Part shown: positions 3,017 to 24,542 of the stretch, piece after piece
Position numbering within the stretch: the first letter of the stretch is position 1
How the letters are laid out: every line of letters starts with the position of its first letter
IMG/VR virus record: IMGVR_UViG_3300032401_000002
Location: 32,001-96,000 of that record
DNA: 64,000 nucleotides
Strand: one strand, 5' to 3'
DNA from: a virus
The notes under the pieces: generated by a model
Database searches by the model: none
Seen by the model: the letters and a program-made list of their open reading frames with translations, nothing else
Told to the model about the DNA's origin: nothing
Position numbers and translations under genes: made by a program

Positions 3017-3473
3017 CAGTCCGAGCCTCCTTGGAAGCGCGATATTCCTCCTGGGTCATGCCCCGCTCCTGCGCGAGGAGTTGCTCGAAGGTGCGTCGGC
3101 GCGACGGATGCAGCGTATCACTCGCGTTGAGCTTCCAGGTTTCTCGCTCCTCGGGGGTGATGAGACGCTCGTTCTCCTCGTCAGACCAGTGCTCCTGGTA
3201 CGCTCGCAGGTATGGCTTCGGCTCCTCTTCAACCAATTCGTACGTGGCCTCGAAGATATCCGGCTTGCAGGGATAGAACTCACCCTGGATACCCTTGATG
3301 ATGTAGTCGCCGACCGAGACGCGCATGTCGCCTTCGAGAGTCGGGATGATCAAGCTAGGGCCACGCTCTTCAGGGTCAATGATGGTCGGGCAGAACGCAA
3401 GGCACTCGATGTCGTTCCAACCTTCGTACCTGACGGCCTCAATCACGACGGGCTTCTTACGATACTTGGGCAT
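3009..3473 (-). CDS. conserved phage protein (KYRKKPVVIEA / PGDYG-like family)
   Basis: MPKYRKKPVVIEAV...TLEGDMRVSVGDYIIKGIQGEFYPCKPDIFEATYE; SD GAGGAG before ATG 3473. Confidence 0.85.
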   Translation of the reverse strand: MPKYRKKPVVIEAVRYEGWNDIECLAFCPTIIDPEERGPSLIIPTLEGDMRVSVGDYIIKGIQGEFYPCKPDIFEATYELVEEEPKPYLRAYQEHWSDEENERLITPEERETWKLNASDTLHPSRRRTFEQLLAQERGMTQEEYRASKEARTGG

Positions 3474-3678
3474 GCTGTCTCCTCTCGACGTGGAACCCAT
3501 TGTCTGTCTTGACAATGCGATCCCCACAATATGCGGTCTCGGTACCCTCGGGGGTATCGACTTCAATCCTCTCGTCCTCCATGTAAGAGCGCCCGTTGCA
3601 CCACTCAGCCAACTCCATCCAAGCGTCTAGTGCGTCAAGGCTAACCTCTGTGGGAACGTCACGATGCTGCTGCGGCAT
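3457..3678 (-). CDS. small protein, divergent paralog of the downstream PGDYG-like protein
   Basis: LAEWCNG...VDTPEGTETAYCGDRIVK resembles IPTLEGDMRVSVGDYIIK. Confidence 0.6.
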   Translation of the reverse strand: MPQQHRDVPTEVSLDALDAWMELAEWCNGRSYMEDERIEVDTPEGTETAYCGDRIVKTDNGFHVERRQHAQVS

Positions 3679-17273: not shown

Positions 17274-17483
17274 TTGGGGGCAAGCAGTTACTGAAGGTAT
17301 ACCGATGGTGTAGTTTGCCATCTGATCGCCTGGCTCTTCGGAGCAGGGAGATACATAGTTCGGGTAGCCCATCTGGCGCAGCATTGCTACGGGGATCGCA
17401 ACCGAGGCAGATGCCGAACGAAGTAGAGTTTCGAGACTGGGGGTCGATCCCCAAGGTTGGCCCCCAGTCTCAAAGTTTATCGT

Positions 17484-17555
17484 CGCGGATTGGAGCAGTG
17501 GTAGCTCGCTAGGCTCATAACCTAGAGGTCGTTGGTTCGAATCCATCATCCGCTA
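17484..17555 (+). tRNA. tRNA-Met(CAT), initiator-like
   Basis: Cloverleaf, C1 mismatch, fMet-type D arm, loop CTCATAA. Confidence 0.9.
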
Positions 17556-17920
17556 TGAGGCCACCGCCCTAATACCCACGGGTAGTCGGGTTGTGCTGGC
17601 CTCTCTAGCTCAGGTGTATAACAGGACGGCTTGCCGTCTGAGGCCACCTGGGAACGGGTACGGGGTGGAGGCTGGTCGCCGTCTGCTTGTGGTGTAGCGT
17701 CGTCTTCGGACGGGGTGTAATCCGCAGGTTTGATATAGAGCAGTCCCACTCCGTCCCACCTATCCCTTTCTAGCTCACACAAGACTGTCGCGAAAGCGGC
17801 ACCACACGCGCATCTATGCGCGGATTGAGCAGGGTGGCACACAACCTTGACCAAAAGAGTGTGTCTGCGCATGAGATCGCAGGAACCATCTCACGGGCAT
17901 GGCCCGTTACAGCCATACTA

Positions 17921-17994
17921 CAGCGTGTAGCTCAGTCTGGTAGAGTGTCCGTCTGGGGGACGGAGAGTCGAGGGTTCGAGTCCCTCCACGCTGA
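17921..17994 (+). tRNA. tRNA-Pro(GGG)
   Basis: Cloverleaf, loop CTGGGGG. Confidence 0.93.
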
Positions 17995-18002
17995 TAGCAT
18001 GA

Positions 18003-18078
18003 CTGGATGTAGCTCAGTTTGGTTCAGAGTACCCGATTCGGATTCGGGGAGTCGGAGGTTCGAATCCTCCCATCCAGA
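18003..18078 (+). tRNA. tRNA-Pro(CGG)
   Basis: Cloverleaf, loop TTCGGAT. Confidence 0.92.
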
Positions 18079-18082
18079 TAGA

Positions 18083-18157
18083 CAGGTCGTAGCTCAGTCT
18101 GGTAAGAGTGCCCGCCTTGGACGCGGGGAGTCGGTGGTTCGAATCCACCCGGCCTGA
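18083..18157 (+). tRNA. tRNA-Pro(TGG)
   Basis: Cloverleaf, loop CTTGGAC. Confidence 0.93.
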
Positions 18158-18391
18158 TACCTCCTATCCTGAGGGGGAACCCCGCGTTGACCGTGGGATC
18201 GTAAGCGCGTCTCGGCGCTCGTGGAAACTACCCGGACATAGGCGGGCAAGTCTGCGAGAACAACCTGGGGCGAAGCGCGTACCCTGCGCGAGCGGTTAAC
18301 AGAGCACAAGGTTTACATGGTTCGGCTCGTCGTGATGGTCTGTCGCGCTCCTTGTGCCGCGCGATGGATGGCAGGCCATCCTGAGCAACTT

Positions 18392-18755
18392 GGGCATGCC
18401 CGGTTTCGACAGTCGTGTATGGGCAATGAGATGCAGCGGGTCGCGGCCTTATCGCGCCAAGCCTTGGACAGGGCAACCACATGCAGACGACAACATCGTC
18501 TCCACGGACTACATCGACAACGGCATCGCCGCTCTCGAAGACTTCCTCGCGGAAGCGTCCCTCGTCACGGTCTAGCGAGTACCAATAGACCGCTGTGTCG
18601 CCCAGCTTAGGCGACTGACTGCTCGGAAAGTGACGAGTTGACCCGGAGAGGGAAAGTCCTCTGCCCTGGTGGAGGGCACACAGCCCCCAAAGAAGCTGCT
18701 AGAAGTCTTGTTGTAACCGCTCGGTTGGACGAGGGTTCGACTCCCTCCATGTCCA
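18392..18755 (+). ncRNA. ssrA: tmRNA
   Basis: Acceptor GGGCATG/CATGTCC-A with G3.U70, 5' GGTTTCGAC, 3' GGACGAGGGTTCGACTCCCTC T arm, tag ORF 18483-18575 starting GCA. Confidence 0.93.
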
Positions 18756-18901
18756 CTGCAAGAATCAAGAAATCCCCTAGGGGCGTCGTTGTCTGCTACC
18801 AGTTCCGCAGGAGCAGCCAGGTGCGGAACACCTGCGAGGCGTATGAGGGAGAGTCACGAGAGTGACACGGAGATGTCTTTCCCTAGGGGCATCTCTCACA
18901 C

Positions 18902-18970
18902 GCGGAGTAGGCTAAGGCAGCCAAGTGGTCTCCAACACCACAGGACAGGGTTCGATTCCTTGACGCCGCG
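18902..18970 (+). tRNA. tRNA-Trp(CCA), atypical core
   Basis: GTGGT-CTCCAAC-ACCAC arm, T arm, G73; acceptor mismatch and odd connector lengths. Confidence 0.75.
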
Positions 18971-19055
18971 CTTCATCACTGAAAGGTTCGAGGGTTGACT
19001 GAAGGTACGGTTCGTCTGCTCACGGCAGGCAGCTAGGCTTCAGCAGTGATGGCAT

Positions 19056-19129
19056 GCCCCGTTAGTCTAACGGTTCAGGATACCACCCTCTCACGGTGGG
19101 GATTGCGGGTTCGAATCCCGCACGGGGTA
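19056..19129 (+). tRNA. tRNA-Glu(CTC)
   Basis: Cloverleaf, loop CTCTCAC. Confidence 0.92.
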
Positions 19130-19170
19130 CTGCCTTCGGGCACTGGGCCACGCAGCATCAGTGGCATCAC

Positions 19171-19242
19171 TGGAGGGTAGCTCAATGGTAGAGTGTCCCG
19201 CTGTTAACGGGGTGGTTCTGGGTTCGAGTCCCAGCCTTCCAG
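19171..19242 (+). tRNA. tRNA-Asn(GTT)
   Basis: Cloverleaf, loop CTGTTAA. Confidence 0.93.
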
Positions 19243-19254
19243 CTTGCAACACAT

Positions 19255-19328
19255 GGCCTGTTCGTCTAGCGGTCTAGGATACCGGGCTTTCAACTCGGAC
19301 GACAAGGGTTCGAATCCCTTACGGGCTA
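19255..19328 (+). tRNA. tRNA-Glu(TTC)
   Basis: Cloverleaf, loop CTTTCAA. Confidence 0.92.
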
Positions 19329-19427
19329 CTGACGGTGCCACGAGCCGTCGTAAGCAACTCGTGGTCGTGAACAGAGAGGGACGACGGGAAACCGTCCTCT
19401 GACACGGATGAGAAAGCTCCCACACCT

Positions 19428-19500
19428 TAGAGGGTGGTCTAATCGGCAGGACGCCAGGCTCTGACCCTGGAGATTGAAGGTTCGATCCCTTCCCCTCTAG
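19428..19500 (+). tRNA. tRNA-Gln(CTG)
   Basis: Cloverleaf, loop CTCTGAC. Confidence 0.92.
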
Positions 19501-19505
19501 CTCTC

Positions 19506-19577
19506 AACAGGGTAGACTAACGGTAGGTTCCCTGGCCTTGAACCAGGTCGGTCTAGGTTCGAATCCTAGCCCTGTTA
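19506..19577 (+). tRNA. tRNA-Gln(TTG)
   Basis: Cloverleaf, loop CCTTGAA (C33). Confidence 0.82.
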
Positions 19578-19662
19578 CTGCAACAAGATTGCCACGCCCC
19601 TATGCCGGGGCCAATCTAGGCGGGTATTGCGCCCGTGTGTCCAGGTGAAAGCCCTGGCTTAT

Positions 19663-19737
19663 GCCCCTCTAGCCCAACTGGCCAGAGGCAACGGCTTTAA
19701 AGACCGTTCAGTGAAGGTTCGAATCCTTCGGGGGGCA
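19663..19737 (+). tRNA. tRNA-Leu(TAA), short variable arm
   Basis: Actinobacterial-type Leu body, loop TTTAAAG, C31.A39 mismatch. Confidence 0.82.
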
Positions 19738-20121
19738 CTGAAGGACACGCACGTCTGCGCGAAGGGGTTGCTCCCGGAGAGCTTAGGGCGTCCGTGGTGG
19801 TGTGGCCGAGTAGGACTGGATTCCTCTCCACGAGGGGTACAGTTGCGAAGGCACAACCGGCGAAAGTGACGGGCAACCGGCACGAGTAGTAGCCGCGACA
19901 AGGGTGTTGCGTTCGGCCAGAGCCAATCGGTGAGGTCGGTCTCAGTCAGCACTCGTCTGGGAGTAGTTACCTGGGCAGACGGTGGCGCTTGACAGCGCAG
20001 GGAAGGTACGACCGAAACTGTAGCCATTGACATGGACAAGCAGTGGATAGGTCGTCGGAGGGTTGCTGAATCCCTTCCACCACTCCTTCTATCTCTTTCT
20101 CCCCGCACAGTAACTAGCACT

Positions 20122-20301
20122 ATGGCGGGAATCATGATCAGGTGCTCAGGCACGAAGGACGGGGTACATTGTGCCCGGTACACTCGTTTCATTGGAGCGC
20201 CGAATGTTGACTGGACGTGCGAAGGGTGCCTTGCTGGTCGAGCACCATTCGAGCACAAGTCGAAGGTTGTCCAGCAGCAGATGAAGCACAAGAAGAAGTA
20301 G
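20122..20301 (+). CDS. small zinc-finger-like basic protein inside the RNA island
   Basis: MAGIMIRC(8)C...CEGC...KHKKK, 59 aa from ATG 20122. Confidence 0.6.
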   Translation: MAGIMIRCSGTKDGVHCARYTRFIGAPNVDWTCEGCLAGRAPFEHKSKVVQQQMKHKKK

Positions 20302-20304
20302 CTT

Positions 20305-20378
20305 ACCTCGCTAGCTCAAACGGATAGAGCAAGGGTCTTTTAAACCCAAGGTTCTGGGATCGTACCCCAGGCGAGGTA
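20305..20378 (+). tRNA. tRNA-Lys(TTT)
   Basis: Cloverleaf, loop CTTTTAA, T loop ATCGTAC. Confidence 0.87.
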
Positions 20379-20541
20379 CTCTTGAACGACTATTCGGCTC
20401 CTCTGGACGCTGCGCGGCTTCACCACCGCTCGACTCCATGTGGTTCATGGAGGGTCAAGGTTGTTGACGGTAGGCACGCTCGCGACGTAGCCGAAAGACA
20501 GCTTACCGAAGGGCAAGACCGCACTGGTCGTTCAAGTTATT

Positions 20542-20615
20542 GGATCGCTAGCTCAGTTAGGCAGAGCAGGGGACTCTTAATCCCAAGGTCGTCGGTTCGA
20601 TCCCGACGCGATCCA
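20542..20615 (+). tRNA. tRNA-Lys(CTT)
   Basis: Cloverleaf, loop CTCTTAA. Confidence 0.94.
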
Positions 20616-20635
20616 CTGGCCGCAAGGCCGACAGG

Positions 20636-20717
20636 GCCGGAAGGGCGAGGGTTCGAATCCCTCCCGGACAAGGAGCTTCGGCTCACCGTCCGGTAGCTCA
20701 GTGGGAGAGCGTCCGGC
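20636..20717 (+). ncRNA. circularly permuted tRNA-like RNA (YrlA-like topology)
   Basis: Order: anticodon 3' strand, T arm, acceptor 3', UUCG hairpin, acceptor 5', D arm, anticodon 5' strand. Confidence 0.8.
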
Positions 20718-20722
20718 GTTAT

Positions 20723-20805
20723 GCTCTGGTGGTGGAATTGGTATACACACTAGCCTTAGAAGCTAGCGCCCACAGGGATTGAGGGTTCGACTCCCTCCTA
20801 GAGCA
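20723..20805 (+). tRNA. tRNA-Leu(TAG)
   Basis: Long variable arm, loop CTTAGAA. Confidence 0.93.
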
Positions 20806-20857
20806 CTAGGTAGACGTACCGAGACCCAGCGGATGGGTCAACCTAAAGTCCGCACCC

Positions 20858-20941
20858 GCGCTCGTGATGGAATGGGTAGACATGCTAGGTTGAGAGCCTA
20901 GTGGCCGCGAGGTCGTGCAGGTTCAAGTCCTGCCGTGCGCA
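20858..20941 (+). tRNA. tRNA-Leu(GAG)
   Basis: Long variable arm, loop TTGAGAG. Confidence 0.9.
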
Positions 20942-20942
20942 T

Positions 20943-21012
20943 AGGATGGTAGCCCAACAGAGAGGCAGCCCGACAAGGGAAGAGTTGCCGGAATCGAGTC
21001 CGGCCCATCCGA
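20943..21012 (+). ncRNA. tRNA-like element without a canonical anticodon arm
   Basis: GGATGG/CCATCC acceptor, TAGCCCAA..AGAGGC D arm, GCCGG-AATCGAGT-CCGGC T arm. Confidence 0.6.
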
Positions 21013-21016
21013 CCCT

Positions 21017-21090
21017 GGTACGCTAGCTCAATTGGTAGTAGCGTTCGGTTGAAGCCCGAAAGGTTCTCGGTTCAAGTCCGAGGCGTACCA
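21017..21090 (+). tRNA. tRNA-Phe(GAA)
   Basis: Cloverleaf, loop TTGAAGC. Confidence 0.9.
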
Positions 21091-21100
21091 CTGTAGTATT

Positions 21101-21175
21101 GCCCTCTTAGCCCAATCCGGCAGAGGCACCAGCCTCAAACCCTGGTCAGTGGAGGTTCGACTCCTCCAGAGGGCA
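21101..21175 (+). tRNA. tRNA-Leu(CAA), short variable arm
   Basis: Loop CTCAAAC, C31.C39 mismatch. Confidence 0.85.
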
Positions 21176-21189
21176 TAGTACCACCACAT

Positions 21190-21264
21190 GCGGATCGTAG
21201 CTCAATCGGTCAGAGTCGTGGCTTGTGAAGCCATCGGTTGCGGGTTCGAATCCCGTCGATCCGC
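21190..21264 (+). tRNA. tRNA-His(GTG)
   Basis: G-1:C73 pair, loop TTGTGAA. Confidence 0.92.
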
Positions 21265-21271
21265 CTTGTAC

Positions 21272-21344
21272 GTGCGAATGGCTCAGTAGGTAGAGCATCT
21301 GGTTGCCAATCAGAAGGTCGCGGGTTCGAACCCCGCTTCGCACA
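21272..21344 (+). tRNA. tRNA-Gly(GCC)
   Basis: Cloverleaf, loop TTGCCAA, A73. Confidence 0.92.
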
Positions 21345-21465
21345 TCGGTAGCTGGTTGGCGAGTCCTTCCCATGCAGCCTGGGCGACCTGAGTCTCGGCC
21401 GAGATGAGGGAACCTTGTGAATCGGGTCGTTGGCCAACTTGTGCAAACCATCCAGGTGCCGTCCT

Positions 21466-21539
21466 GCTCCATAAGCTCAGTCTGGCAGAGCGCTGGTCTT
21501 GTAAATCAGGGGTTGTCGGTTCGATCCCGACATGGAGCT
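21466..21539 (+). tRNA. tRNA-Thr(TGT)
   Basis: Cloverleaf, loop CTTGTAA. Confidence 0.93.
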
Positions 21540-21542
21540 TAC

Positions 21543-21615
21543 GACCCGGTAACTCAGTGGACAGAGTCACGGTTTCCTAAACCGTTGGTCACAGGTTCGA
21601 CTCCTGTCCGGGTCA
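21543..21615 (+). tRNA. tRNA-Arg(CCT)
   Basis: Cloverleaf, loop TTCCTAA, A20. Confidence 0.93.
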
Positions 21616-21620
21616 TGTTT

Positions 21621-21693
21621 GGCCTGTTAGCTCAGTGGACAGAGCGTGGGGCTTCTATCCCCAGCGTCGGAGGTTCGATCCCTCCACGGGCCA
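21621..21693 (+). tRNA. tRNA-Arg(TCT)
   Basis: Cloverleaf, loop CTTCTAT. Confidence 0.93.
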
Positions 21694-21834
21694 CTTTACA
21701 CAAGACGCTCGAAGCGTCCTTGTACTAGATGATGCCCTTCGGGGCCGGGCGGGGCGATCCATTGGCCTGGGAACAGAACGAGGTCGAACACGACGGGTGA
21801 CAGTTGAACGGCGGGACGCCCGGTGCCCGCACAT

Positions 21835-21906
21835 GCGAAGGTAACTCAACGGTAGAGTCTCAGTTTTCCAAACTGGTGGTTGCGGGTTCGATTCCCGTCC
21901 TTCGCT
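21835..21906 (+). tRNA. tRNA-Gly(TCC)
   Basis: Cloverleaf, loop TTTCCAA. Confidence 0.92.
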
Positions 21907-21951
21907 CTCGGTGGGTGAGTCCAGGTTCGCCCTGTAAGTAGCCCACCGCTA

Positions 21952-22024
21952 CGCTGTGTAGCTCAGTTGGTAGAGCAATCCCCTCATAAGGGAGAGGTCG
22001 GAGGATCGTAGCCTCCCATAGCGA
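21952..22024 (+). tRNA. tRNA-Met(CAT), elongator
   Basis: Cloverleaf, loop CTCATAA, T loop ATCGTAG; Ile2 identity not excluded. Confidence 0.85.
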
Positions 22025-22130
22025 CTTCGGTCAGTGCTTAGGCACAGGACAACGAACCTCCCAAGACCCGGTACGACTCCACAACATGGGTGGAGCAACG
22101 TTCTGATCAAAAGCCGGGTTGGCCGAACAC

Positions 22131-22201
22131 GCTCCTATAGCTCATGTGGAAGAGTCATCCTTCGTACGGATGTGGTCGCAGTTCGACTCTGCGTGGGAGC
22201 T
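22131..22201 (+). tRNA. tRNA-Thr(CGT)
   Basis: Cloverleaf, loop TTCGTAC. Confidence 0.85.
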
Positions 22202-22204
22202 TGC

Positions 22205-22276
<72 letters not shown>

Positions 22277-22385
22277 TGCAACAAGACTCTCCTCGATGCG
22301 TGAGGGGCTGCTCACCAGCCCGCAAAGCGCAAACACGGGAGATAGACCGGGCGAACGGGAGTGAGCTTCGCCTGGTCGAACTTTC

Positions 22386-22458
22386 GGCCTGTTAGCTCAG
22401 CGGACAGAGCGAGTGGCTTCGAACCACTAGGTCGGGGGATCGTACCCCTCACAGGCCA
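22386..22458 (+). tRNA. tRNA-Arg(TCG)
   Basis: Cloverleaf, loop CTTCGAA, T loop ATCGTAC. Confidence 0.9.
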
Positions 22459-22468
22459 TGTAGTACCT

Positions 22469-22540
22469 GGTTTCGTACGAATCTGGTGAAACGGTTCCCC
22501 TGTCACGGGAATGAGGCGGGTTCGATTCCCGTCGAGACCG
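22469..22540 (+). tRNA. tRNA-Asp(GTC)
   Basis: TTCCC-CTGTCAC-GGGAA arm, G73, weak D stem. Confidence 0.82.
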
Positions 22541-22691
22541 CTATGGGCTGTAGAGTCCTGGGGTGTTGGAGAATCCCCGAAGCTGCGAGGTAGACCAACC
22601 TCCTCGCGGCCTCTAGTCGCGCTCCTTGAAAGCTGGCCCGCAAGGCCGGTGGAAGTATCGGGCAAAACCGACGCGACTCATTCAGGGCCTG

Positions 22692-22763
22692 GGGCGGTTA
22701 GCTCAGTGGGAGAGCAGGTTCTTTACACGTACAAGGTCGGGGGTTCGAATCCCTCACCGCCCA
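22692..22763 (+). tRNA. tRNA-Val(TAC)
   Basis: Canonical D/T arms, loop TTTACAC, mismatched anticodon stem. Confidence 0.87.
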
Positions 22764-22771
22764 TACCAGGA

Positions 22772-22877
22772 TTCAGCGCTAGTGTGCCTGCCTGGGGCCG
22801 AACCACCCGTATGCCGGTGGGGGAATCAGCACCCGAGGGTACTCGGAGTTCAGGTGCGAACCCTGAGCGCTATTGAA
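22772..22877 (+). ncRNA. tRNA-like RNA with D-loop insertion and a tetraloop in place of the anticodon
   Basis: AGCGC/GCGCT acceptor, GTGT/GCAC D stem, CCGAG-GGTA-CTCGG, TCAGG-TGCGAAC-CCTGA T arm. Confidence 0.65.
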
Positions 22878-22879
22878 CG

Positions 22880-22953
22880 TGACCCGTAGCTCAGTGGTAA
22901 GAAGCGGGAGGCTTATATCCTCTTGGTCGTGGGTTCGATTCCCACCGGGTCAA
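22880..22953 (+). tRNA. tRNA-Ile(TAT)
   Basis: Cloverleaf, loop CTTATAT. Confidence 0.88.
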
Positions 22954-22954
22954 T

Positions 22955-23190
22955 CACGAACGGAAAGACAAGCGCGGTCGCAAGATCGAGGAAAGTCAGG
23001 CCACCTGAACCAGGGGAGACCAATGCAACCTGGGGAAACGTGACGAGGACGTGGGAGAAGGTCGCAAGGTCTTCGGCTTACCACCTAATCGGCGGGGTGC
23101 AACCTCAAGCGGACGGTCATCTCAGACCGGACAGGTAGAGGGCACAGATAGATGCTTGTCCTAGACAGAAGCCTGCTTACGAAGTTCGTG
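22955..23190 (+). ncRNA. rnpB: miniature RNase P RNA
   Basis: P1 CACGAAC/GTTCGTG, P2 GACAAGC/GCTTGTC, GAGGAAAGTC, 3' ACAGAAGCCTGCTTA with compensated P4, AGATAGATG. Confidence 0.88.
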
Positions 23191-23244
23191 TACACATGAG
23201 AGTGGTTTGGCGGTCGTGACCCATACCTCACGCGCTCTCACCTT

Positions 23245-23317
23245 TGGCTCGTAGCTCAGTTGGGAGAGCACTTGATTGACATTCAAGAGGTCGTCGGATC
23301 GAGGCCGACCGAGCCAA
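23245..23317 (+). tRNA. tRNA-Val(GAC)
   Basis: Cloverleaf, loop TTGACAT, T loop ATCGAGG. Confidence 0.88.
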
Positions 23318-23388
23318 CTTGCCCACCCGTCGCGTTGTAGGGGAGTGGCATAAGCCCCCGTCTGTTGCAACGCCAGCCGGGGGAACTC

Positions 23389-23462
23389 GCGGTTGTAGCT
23401 CAGTGGAATAGAGTATCAGGTTGCGAACCTGAGGGTCGCTGGTTCGAATCCAGCCAATCGCA
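23389..23462 (+). tRNA. tRNA-Arg(GCG)
   Basis: Cloverleaf, TCAGG-TTGCGAA-CCTGA. Confidence 0.9.
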
Positions 23463-23653
23463 CTCAGCACTACAAGTTTGGGGACGGCCCCGTCAGGCCC
23501 CTTCCCAACGCTACCTCTGGCGAGATAGGGGTCGTGTCAACTCGACCACGAAAGTGTCGGGGCGCTGCGAATCACAGAGCGTGTTATCTGTGGTCGTCTG
23601 CCGGGAGACTACCCCGTGTCAAACCAGGTGTAGCTGACGGCTCGCCTGGCCTA

Positions 23654-23727
23654 GGACTTGTAGCTCAGTGGTATAGAGCATCCGTCTGATACGCGGAGGG
23701 TCGGTGGTTCGACTCCACCCAAGTCCA
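23654..23727 (+). tRNA. tRNA-Ile(GAT)
   Basis: Cloverleaf, loop CTGATAC. Confidence 0.93.
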
Positions 23728-23849
23728 TGAGAAGTAGCTCAGATGCCATCTCGCATGTGTCTCCCGGCCAGAGCCGGATAGGGTGCATGCGGGGCAGAGC
23801 GGGCCGATGATCACGGTCGCGACGAGGGGCTGGCAATCCTCCTTCTCTA
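23728..23849 (+). ncRNA. tRNA-like RNA with a 56-nt structured D loop
   Basis: GAGAAG/CTTCTC acceptor, TA-GCTC...GAGC D stem, GGCCG-ATGATCA-CGGTC, variant T arm. Confidence 0.65.
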
Positions 23850-23852
23850 CAT

Positions 23853-23923
23853 AGTGATGTGACCGAGAGGCCAGGTCGTTGGCTGCAACCCTTCGCACAG
23901 CGGTTCGAATCCGCTCATCACTT
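23853..23923 (+). tRNA. tRNA-Cys(GCA)
   Basis: Loop CTGCAAC, U73, mismatched anticodon stem. Confidence 0.83.
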
Positions 23924-23927
23924 CTTC

Positions 23928-24001
23928 GGGCGGCTAGCTCAATTTGGGAGAGCAACGCGCTTGCACCGCGTAGGTTGGGGGTTCAAGTCCCCCGCTGTCC
24001 A
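23928..24001 (+). tRNA. tRNA-Ala(TGC)
   Basis: G3.U70, loop CTTGCAC. Confidence 0.93.
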
Positions 24002-24003
24002 CT

Positions 24004-24103
24004 ACCGAAAGAACGGGTTCGAATCCCGGCCGCGCGACCCAAGCTAGAGGGGTATACACCAAAGGCGAAGGTCTGATCAGTAGTGTAAGGGCAGCACGTC
24101 GGT
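24004..24103 (+). ncRNA. second circularly permuted tRNA-like RNA
   Basis: ACCGA...CGGG-TTCGAAT-CCCG...TAGTGTAAGGGCAGCAC-G-TCGGT; ACCGA pairs with TCGGT. Confidence 0.62.
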
Positions 24104-24110
24104 TTAACTT

Positions 24111-24186
24111 GGGTTGTGGGGCTGCATGGGGTGGCCATCTCGCTTGCACCGAGAACAACAGCAGGGTTCGATTCCCTGACGATCCA
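24111..24186 (+). tRNA. tRNA-Ala(TGC), atypical second copy
   Basis: G3.U70, loop CTTGCAC; G8G9, unusual D loop, 7-nt variable loop. Confidence 0.78.
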
Positions 24187-24278
24187 CTAGGAAGCAGAAG
24201 CACGCAGATGACTCGTAGGTGTTCTAGAAACCAGGGCCGTAACGCAACCGTGCCCCATCAGCGCTGCATCCTACTCGT

Positions 24279-24362
24279 GGTAGGTTACTCAAGTGGTTAC
24301 GAGAGCGGGTTGCTAACCCGTCAAGTCGCAAGGCTTCCTGGGTTCGAATCCCAGACCTACCG
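24279..24362 (+). tRNA. tRNA-Ser(GCT)
   Basis: Long variable arm, loop TTGCTAA. Confidence 0.92.
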
Positions 24363-24367
24363 TACCA

Positions 24368-24451
24368 GGAAGGTCGCATTGGCGTGCTTATGCGGTTTGA
24401 ACCCGTTGATGGGGCTAATCCCCCGTGGGAGTTCGACTCTCCCACCTTCCT
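24368..24451 (+). tRNA. tRNA-Ser(TGA), atypical D arm
   Basis: Long variable arm, loop TTTGAAC, T arm GGGAG-TTCGACT-CTCCC. Confidence 0.75.
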
Positions 24452-24455
24452 CTTT

Positions 24456-24536
24456 GCTGGCGCTTGCTCAATGGTGAGGGCTACTGGCTGTAACCCAGAA
24501 GACACGTCTATGGGGGTTCGACTCCTCCCGCCAGCA
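24456..24536 (+). tRNA. tRNA-Tyr(GTA)
   Basis: Loop CTGTAAC, variable-arm hairpin, A73. Confidence 0.8.
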
Positions 24537-24542
24537 CTCCGC

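Follow-up and report, generated by a model that had tools for sequence, protein, structure and literature searches.

Phage tRNA clusters can hold small stable RNAs that are not tRNAs. RNA species I and II of phage T4 are cut from the same precursors as its tRNAs, and their function is still unknown; neither is known to carry an insert in its D loop or a sealed anticodon stem. Both are shown on the map of the T4 tRNA cluster (PMC2330249). Y RNAs (YrlA, RF02553; Yrn1) are likewise non-decoding, mimic the elbow formed by the D and T arms of a tRNA and are in some cases encoded by phages. In Yrn1 the ends lie at the acceptor side and the anticodon arm is closed, with a short loop (Chen et al. 2014, PMC4201824), and the known phage Y RNAs adjoin a phage Ro60 gene (PMC4201824). 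A survey of candidate structured viral RNAs treats tRNA-like candidates only in general terms (PMC10690425). Here we compare these systems with an element in the tRNA array of an uncultured phage, contained in a 64,000-nucleotide (nt) stretch of DNA, hereafter the window, which corresponds to bases 32001–96000 of the 150-kb IMG/VR virus record IMGVR_UViG_3300032401_000002 (estimated to be 93% complete). The element lies on the + strand at 22772–22877; coordinates given without a contig name are those of the window.

The array runs along the + strand from 17483 to 24537 and contains 39 tRNA genes, as called by ARAGORN, plus one transfer-messenger RNA (tmRNA) gene. Within it, tRNA-Val(UAC) (22692–22763) and tRNA-Ile(UAU) (22880–22953) bound a gap of 116 nt, which the element fills. 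The RNA in this gap is conserved, lies on the tRNA strand and is built as a four-way junction whose arms come in tRNA-like order: at 22775–22871, a closing stem, U8-A9, a D stem of 4 base pairs (bp), a capped 5-bp stem and a T arm follow one another as a cloverleaf. The loop of the anticodon-stem equivalent is 4 nt long, which makes the presentation of an anticodon impossible, so this RNA cannot read a codon. We favour, at a probability of roughly 60%, the reading that the element encodes a small RNA, derived from a tRNA and unable to decode, which selection maintains in a small number of large phages whose tRNA arrays are near-complete. As far as we found, the combination of an arm in the D loop with a sealed anticodon stem is undescribed.

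With canonical tRNA (RF00005) the element shares the sequence of closing stem, U8-A9, putative 4-bp D stem, 5-bp stem, short variable region and T arm, and the T arm itself has the 5-bp stem with G53-C61 and the 7-nt loop with U54, C56, R57 and A58. Its location in a tRNA array on the tRNA strand, its tRNA-like rate of change and the weak matches of its model to true tRNAs are further points of likeness. Unlike a tRNA, it has a loop of 4 nt instead of a 7-nt anticodon loop with U33 and a purine at 37, and a D loop of 43 nt with an arm of its own instead of one of 7–11 nt; it also lacks position 26, has only 3 nt in the variable region, carries G55 in the window and has no conserved 7-bp acceptor with a free 3′ end. 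We took 29 bits, or a call by a tRNA finder, as the threshold for RF00005 membership, and ARAGORN called no tRNA at the element. Compared with YrlA, whose order is permuted (T arm, closed acceptor-like stem, D arm, ending in the Ro-binding stem), the element keeps the tRNA order, and we saw no RF02553 match, no Ro60 gene and no conserved Ro-binding helix. With T4 species I and II it shares only the position inside an array; T4 has 8 tRNAs against 39 here, and a relation in sequence is not expected.

Folded by itself, the element has a minimum free energy of −41.7 kcal/mol (z = −0.23 against shuffles), no better than chance. A search of Rfam found no family at 22764–22879, RF00005 and RF02553 included, either at the gathering cut-off or up to an E value of 10. 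With an ordinary z-score and no match in ARAGORN or Rfam, a single sequence is unable to show more than chance, and the case for more than chance rests on homologs. Among GenBank phages we found neither a close relative of the phage nor a homolog of the element, the matches being at the level of the T arm only (E value of 0.09 or more).

The proteins of the phage include a DnaE-type polymerase, a class II ribonucleotide reductase and an SNF2 helicase, and many sediment metagenome runs contain DNA that is near-identical to it; in 16 DNA runs at least 0.64 of the sampled words are present. To fetch contigs of relatives we used the helicase, 2.2 kb downstream, as anchor. Single-protein searches of IMG/VR with the helicase and with the reductase returned nothing, and an alignment of the helicase gave 17 loci. 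The P0002 and P0003 relatives (helicase 79–82% identical) were left out of the comparison, and some contigs end before the slot. In contig L004, with a helicase 74% identical, the gene order Arg-Asp-Val(UAC)-gap-Ile(UAU)-RNase P-like-Val(GAC) is the same as in the window, and the gap of 118 nt in the same slot is 91–92% identical to the element; for the nine tRNAs common to the two, the median is 82%. L013–L015, three strains that agree with the window at about 99.4% of positions, carry identical copies of the element and therefore add no information.

A covariance model built from the window and L004 copies only found the element in two further IMG/VR contigs (L029/L032, one phage) at 57.9 bits and an E value of about 1e-11. 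Such a search had been proposed in a first-pass annotation made from the sequence alone, and a conserved homolog is what it yielded. The helicases of the window phage and this phage are 47% identical. In L029 the copy sits between tRNA-Phe and tRNA-Leu(CAA), a slot that measures 8 nt in the window, and the arrays otherwise have the same order of tRNAs. Because the slots differ in syntenic arrays (Val(UAC)-Ile(UAU) against Phe-Leu(CAA)), the element can be regarded as an autonomous module. Window and L029 elements are 70% identical, and 30 orthologous tRNAs are 60–86% identical with a median of 73%; judged by these identities, the element evolves as fast as its true tRNA neighbours. Both carrier genomes have a single copy.

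Covariance model R2, run with filters off on four related arrays, otherwise matched only true tRNAs, end to end and at 11–19 bits, which shows a tRNA-like architecture. An ancestor tRNA of the element was sought and not identified. When we scanned IMG/VR, JGI metagenomes and GTDB genomes with patterns of the conserved blocks, only L029/L032 and chance matches in coding DNA (L042, L069 and others) were returned. The exact 18-mer of the hairpin had a single match in IMG/VR, which we discarded as it lies in an unrelated coding contig (L002).

Comparison of the window clade with L029 revealed five pairs, in four helices, that have changed on both sides with pairing retained. The closing stem has gone from GCGC/GCGC to GCGG/CCGC in L029, with one doubly changed pair; the T stem, with two, reads CCCGG/CCGGG there; and an A-U pair has become G-C in both the inserted hairpin and the capped stem. 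Paired cells amounted to 97%, against 28–50% when the partners were slid by 1–3 columns, and 4 of 500 column shuffles did as well. As the alignment behind these values had been fitted to the covariance model, we also aligned the three spacers and their flanks with plain MAFFT and passed the result to RNAalifold. All five helices and all five compensatory pairs were recovered, and a 3-bp helix (CCU/GGG) that leaves a bulge of 9 nt was added under the inserted hairpin. The D stem has a conserved U.G pair, which is compatible with the + strand alone, and no open reading frame common to the three sequences was found.

Unpaired sequence is kept as well, namely UA, GRGGCCGAA, GGGAA, the A before the 3′ strand of the D stem, AGU and the core of the T loop. 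The T loops are UGCGAAC, UGCAAAU and UUCGAGU, and all retain the G53-C61 pair together with U54, C56, R57 and A58. At position 55 the window clade has G and L029 has U, the L029 loop (UUCGAGU) being canonical. Given the homologs in L004 and L029, the compensatory changes and the tRNA-like rate, the tRNA-shaped non-decoding RNA that the first-pass annotation had proposed is real and conserved, and each part of the cloverleaf order that it listed lies at its place in the sequence.

The closing, acceptor-like stem pairs AGCGC (22775–22779) with GCGCU (22867–22871), and both covariation and the RNAalifold consensus include it. The acceptor described at first is present in a weaker form, with five clean pairs only and U.U and C.A at 1:72 and 2:71. 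The UA linker at 22780–22781 (tRNA positions 8–9) is invariant in the window, L004 and L029, as is the D stem, in which GUGU (22782–22785) pairs with GCAC (22829–22832); the capped stem starts at once after GCAC, with no position-26 nucleotide between them. Being invariant, the stem gives no covariation.

The D loop (22786–22828), put at about 43 nt in the first-pass annotation, has exactly 43 nt in the window (43–45 nt across the copies) and contains the CCACC-CGUAUGCC-GGUGG hairpin named there. Its additional helix joins CCU (22791–22793) to GGG (22821–22823) and encloses the 9-nt bulge GGGGCCGAA (22794–22802, consensus GRGGCCGAA). Window and L029 agree throughout this bulge, L004 departs from them by a single G to A change, and no other single-stranded stretch of the element is so well conserved. 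The inserted hairpin follows, with CCACC at 22803–22807, the loop at 22808–22815 and GGUGG at 22816–22820. Display of the UAUGCC hairpin loop had been suggested as the function of the fold; this loop is not kept, with a G to U change in L004 (CGUAUUCC) and a shorter and different loop, UGACGCU, in L029. The bulge and the junction are, from the pattern of conservation, better candidates. The 3′ part of the D loop, GGGAAUCA (22821–22828), keeps GGGAA and the final A ahead of the D stem, with an intervening length that varies; its GGG run, upstream of the 3′ strand, is conserved, and this part probably takes the place of G18, G19 and A21 of a tRNA.

The capped stem consists of CCGAG (22833–22837), the GGUA loop (22838–22841) and CUCGG (22842–22846). 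GGUA is the non-decoding 4-nt loop already noted at first pass; it is the same in L004 and is replaced by CGCA in L029. A DNA contig over the element (X17) differs by a single C to U at 22844, turning G-C into G.U, and with a depth of 2.5 this may be an error. The variable region AGU (22847–22849) is invariant in the three sequences and leads into the T arm, made up of UCAGG (22850–22854), UGCGAAC (22855–22861) and CCUGA (22862–22866). A 3′ tail, AUUGAACG (22872–22879), reaches to the 5′ end of tRNA-Ile(UAU); it does not encode CCA and is not kept in L004 or L029. In the window, UGAA of this tail can pair with UUCA (22772–22775) over a 3-nt bulge. The outer closing helix differs by lineage. 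In L004 it is 7 bp with an A.A mismatch; in L029 a 13-nt/4-nt internal loop separates 4 bp from a 10-bp outer helix, which begins 1 nt past tRNA-Phe and ends 6 nt before tRNA-Leu. As the acceptor end is not conserved as a 7-bp stem, processing or CCA addition at the element's own ends is doubtful, and a conserved tRNA-like 3′ end for CCA addition or charging is unlikely on this comparison. For the same reason the element is probably not aminoacylated.

Under the favoured reading, the element would be transcribed on the + strand within the tRNA/tmRNA array of about 7.4 kb and released by the maturation of its neighbours, its 5′ side being set where tRNA-Val(UAC) is trimmed at the 3′ end and its 3′ side where RNase P cuts tRNA-Ile(UAU) at the 5′ end. 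If tRNA processing here follows the standard route, the element need not be an RNase P substrate itself, because the cuts in its neighbours would free it. It would then fold like the core of the tRNA L-shape, with the closing stem stacked on the T arm and the D stem directly on the capped stem, and conservation suggests that the T loop (U54, C56, R57, A58) docks on the 3′ part of the D loop, which is rich in G. At the elbow, where the D loop varies in length, the inserted arm (3 bp, the GRGGCCGAA bulge, 5 bp and a loop that varies) would stick out, and the bulge with the following GGGAA would be the most probable contact for a protein or RNA partner. Our best guess is that the partner is a tRNA-binding enzyme or a tRNA-targeting host factor, with the RNA acting in trans as a ligand or decoy.

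Several observations weigh against this reading. Fold energies of the single copies are ordinary (z = −0.23, −1.57 and −1.11). There are three distinct sequences and all five compensatory changes fall on one branch, so statistical power is low; the D stem is invariant, and the pairing that defines the D-loop insert is therefore without support from covariation. The element was not found in the complete arrays L007 and L053, in the partial arrays L005, L006 and L010 or in 15 more related IMG/VR records searched whole, which makes at least 20 related arrays or records without it. L053 is the closest available relative of L029 (helicase 63% identical). Missing from the complete arrays of close relatives of its carriers and from the 15 other records, the element is, on this distribution, dispensable and a rare accessory of these arrays. 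A partner gene was not found either. We saw no Ro60/TROVE, Pth or Pth2: the PF05731 (TROVE/Ro60) profile had no match in the 93%-complete genome G000, and gave the expected matches in control genomes, and PF01981 and PF01195 had no match in G000, G001 and G002, where a very divergent Pth-like protein could escape these profiles. Nor did a search of the arrays for a complement of the conserved bulge find a consistent site elsewhere. Finally, signs of expression of the element were not found; in the metatranscriptome runs X22 and X23 no contig spans 22768–22880, which reflects lack of cover and not silence. An 85-kb contig (X19) aligns only from 22876 on, the 82 nt at its upstream end giving no alignment at 80%, and we draw no conclusion from it.

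Could the element instead act only in cis, as a structured spacer of the precursor? Such a spacer would space, insulate or stabilize pre-tRNAs, block exonucleases or offer a site to RNase E, III or P, and would have no life after processing. Most long spacers of these arrays are indeed structured, some of them with tRNA-like hairpins (for example L010 596–721), the 10-bp outer helix that encloses the L029 copy resembles a double-stranded processing site, and relatives dispense with the element. A cis role leaves unexplained, however, why the unpaired GRGGCCGAA, GGGAA and T-loop core are conserved at the level of tRNAs between phages whose helicases are 47% identical, and why one module occupies two slots. 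Other spacers, such as 22542–22691, are wholly turned over between the window and L004. We regard this explanation as unlikely. The L010 spacer at 596–721 separates tRNA-Phe from tRNA-Leu(CAA) and contains a 7-bp GCUCGAC/GUCGAGC stem and a T-like hairpin (CCGG-UGCGACU-CCGG); the element model does not match it. The spacer at 22542–22691, 150 nt between tRNA-Asp and tRNA-Val(UAC), is absent in L004, where those tRNAs abut and an unrelated spacer of about 100 nt lies between tRNA-Arg(UCG) and tRNA-Asp instead. Spacers of these arrays turn over fast, in contrast to the element.

A decaying tRNA gene that suffered an insertion in its D loop and a collapse of its anticodon loop, and has not yet been erased, would account for the failure of ARAGORN and the Rfam tRNA model to see the element and for its absence from most relatives; fragments and pseudogenes do occur in phage tRNA arrays. 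Decay would predict changes that are blind to the helices and faster than those of live tRNAs, and we found 97% paired cells, five double changes and a rate of change equal to that of working tRNAs. Moreover, the insertion and the sealed loop are common to the window and L029, the stems have since been repaired by compensatory changes, and the T loop of L029 is canonical. This makes decay improbable.

We give similarly little weight to the view that the element is a small cassette of tRNA origin, mobile or recombining, that shifts between slots and phage arrays and persists through its own spread and not through any benefit to the phage. The different slots in otherwise colinear arrays, the patchy occurrence (2 lineages of more than 20) and the 10-bp inverted repeat around the L029 copy are what such a cassette might leave. 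Against it, each of the two carrier genomes has one copy only, and we found no direct repeats, no terminal repeats common to the window and L029 copies, no adjoining nuclease or transposase gene and no copies in the scans of IMG/VR, JGI metagenomes and GTDB genomes. The tRNA arrays of three relatives have an inserted open reading frame for a 136-amino-acid protein of the PDDEXK_5 (PF11645) nuclease family (L005 1848–2258, L006 1369–1779 and L007 6232–6642); it is not in the array of the window.

A Y-RNA-like partner of a host Ro60/Rsr protein, with a tRNA-like domain set on a long Ro60-binding closing stem in the orientation of Deinococcus Yrn1, has a very low probability in our view. In its favour, bacterial and phage Y RNAs bear D and T arms like those of tRNA, the anticodon arm of Yrn1 is closed, 5 bp long and short-looped (PMC4201824), the basal helix of the L029 copy is long and interrupted, and a weak YrlA match occurs in a related array (L053 2865–2960, 34 bits). 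On the other side, no TROVE/Ro60 gene was found in the 93%-complete genome, neither YrlA nor any other Rfam family matches the element up to an E value of 10, and the basal helix differs among the three copies. The YrlA match in the 39-tRNA array of L053 has an E value of 2e-4 and lies below the gathering score of 69; the same array has a weak match to the manA RNA motif (25 bits, 2689–2789).

Hardly any credence is left for a class II style tRNA read in another register and decoding in an unusual way, with CCACC/GGUGG as the anticodon arm and the tetraloop hairpin as the variable arm. In support, the tetraloop hairpin, followed by 3 nt and the T arm, is reminiscent of tRNA-Leu, Ser or Tyr with their long variable arm; in local comparisons the L029 copy scored highest, at 32 (next best 24), with the variable and T arms of the adjacent tRNA-Leu(CAA); and the hairpin loop of this copy has 7 nt. 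Against it, the would-be anticodon loop (8, 8 and 7 nt) is variable in sequence and lacks U33 or a purine at 37, no D arm can form between UA and the hairpin in L029, 12–15 nt separate the hairpin from the would-be variable arm, and the consensus fold pairs GUGU with GCAC across the hairpin. We rejected this register for its lack of tRNA features in the loop and of a D arm in L029; the element may still derive from a class II tRNA.

The element is not the only tRNA-like RNA in these arrays with an insert in its D loop. A second family lies directly 3′ of tRNA-Ile(GAU), always in the same slot, in the window (23726–23852) and at five further loci (L003 77–203, L004 1375–1503, L005 2982–3095, L029 7988–8090 and L053 7671–7775), and is far more widespread than the element. 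This family also forms a cloverleaf; its insert, long and structured, enters the D loop at the same point, and a G run and an A lie between the insert and the D stem. The window clade keeps 7 nt in the loop, AUGAUCA (GAU, with C at position 37); the loop of L005 is likewise 7 nt long and differs in sequence, and in L029 a short capped loop appears to be present. Model R2 has no match to this family, so the two are unrelated in sequence. That two families share this plan speaks for our favoured reading and supports the view that the D-loop insert marks a site in the tRNA-like fold that is tolerated and probably used.

Other RNAs of the arrays are noted for completeness. Directly 3′ of tRNA-Ile(UAU) lies a match to class A RNase P RNA (22954–23195, 49.4 bits, E value of 5.5e-14, below the gathering score of 100), so that one tRNA stands between the element and this sub-threshold RNase P RNA-like match, as the first-pass annotation had it. 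Reduced RNase P RNA-like genes of about 240–320 nt (RF00010, 43–49 bits) follow tRNA-Val(UAC) or tRNA-Ile(UAU) in the window, L004 (592–854), L029 (7283–7523), L010 (2902–3219) and L053 (6523–6810). Contigs with relatives of this gene are found in the metatranscriptome runs X22 (record 16) and X23 (record 27), which attests their presence in RNA libraries and does not prove transcription. The RNase P-like RNA is more widespread than the element; L053, with a complete array, has it and lacks the element, so the two are uncoupled. At 24004–24103 the window holds a permuted tRNA-like element, with the T arm first and the D arm last, in a form not seen in L004. Its D arm (UAGUGU-AAGGGCA-GCAC) has the same stem sequence as the element studied here, and it has no YrlA match at an E value of 10. 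In L006, ARAGORN calls a tRNA with a 2-nt anticodon ('at') at 3438–3510, directly after tRNA-Val(UAC), which scores 47 bits with the Rfam tRNA model; its slot corresponds to that of the element plus tRNA-Ile(UAU) in the window.

Phage tRNA arrays are commonly seen as devices for codon supply or for escape from defence, and the parts in which no tRNA is called are taken as spacer. Our favoured reading would mean that part of this spacer is a selected, tRNA-derived RNA that is unable to decode, and both families would be natural examples of where the tRNA fold tolerates a large insertion. A wider possibility, which we raise tentatively and consider doubtful as it stands, is that large soil and sediment phages with near-complete tRNA sets carry tRNA-shaped adaptor RNAs, with two unrelated families side by side in one array, that use the length-tolerant pocket of the D loop as a socket for a functional arm and have a sealed or degenerate anticodon end, and that serve as decoys, inhibitors or recruiters in a contest over host translation. 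If this is true, the tRNA body would give entry to the tRNA-handling machinery or to tRNA-targeting host defences, and the arm would add a second specificity. Taken together, the two families suggest that tRNA shapes have uses in phage infection other than decoding, and a partner, if found, could reveal a new phage route to tRNA enzymes or to tRNA-cleaving defence systems.

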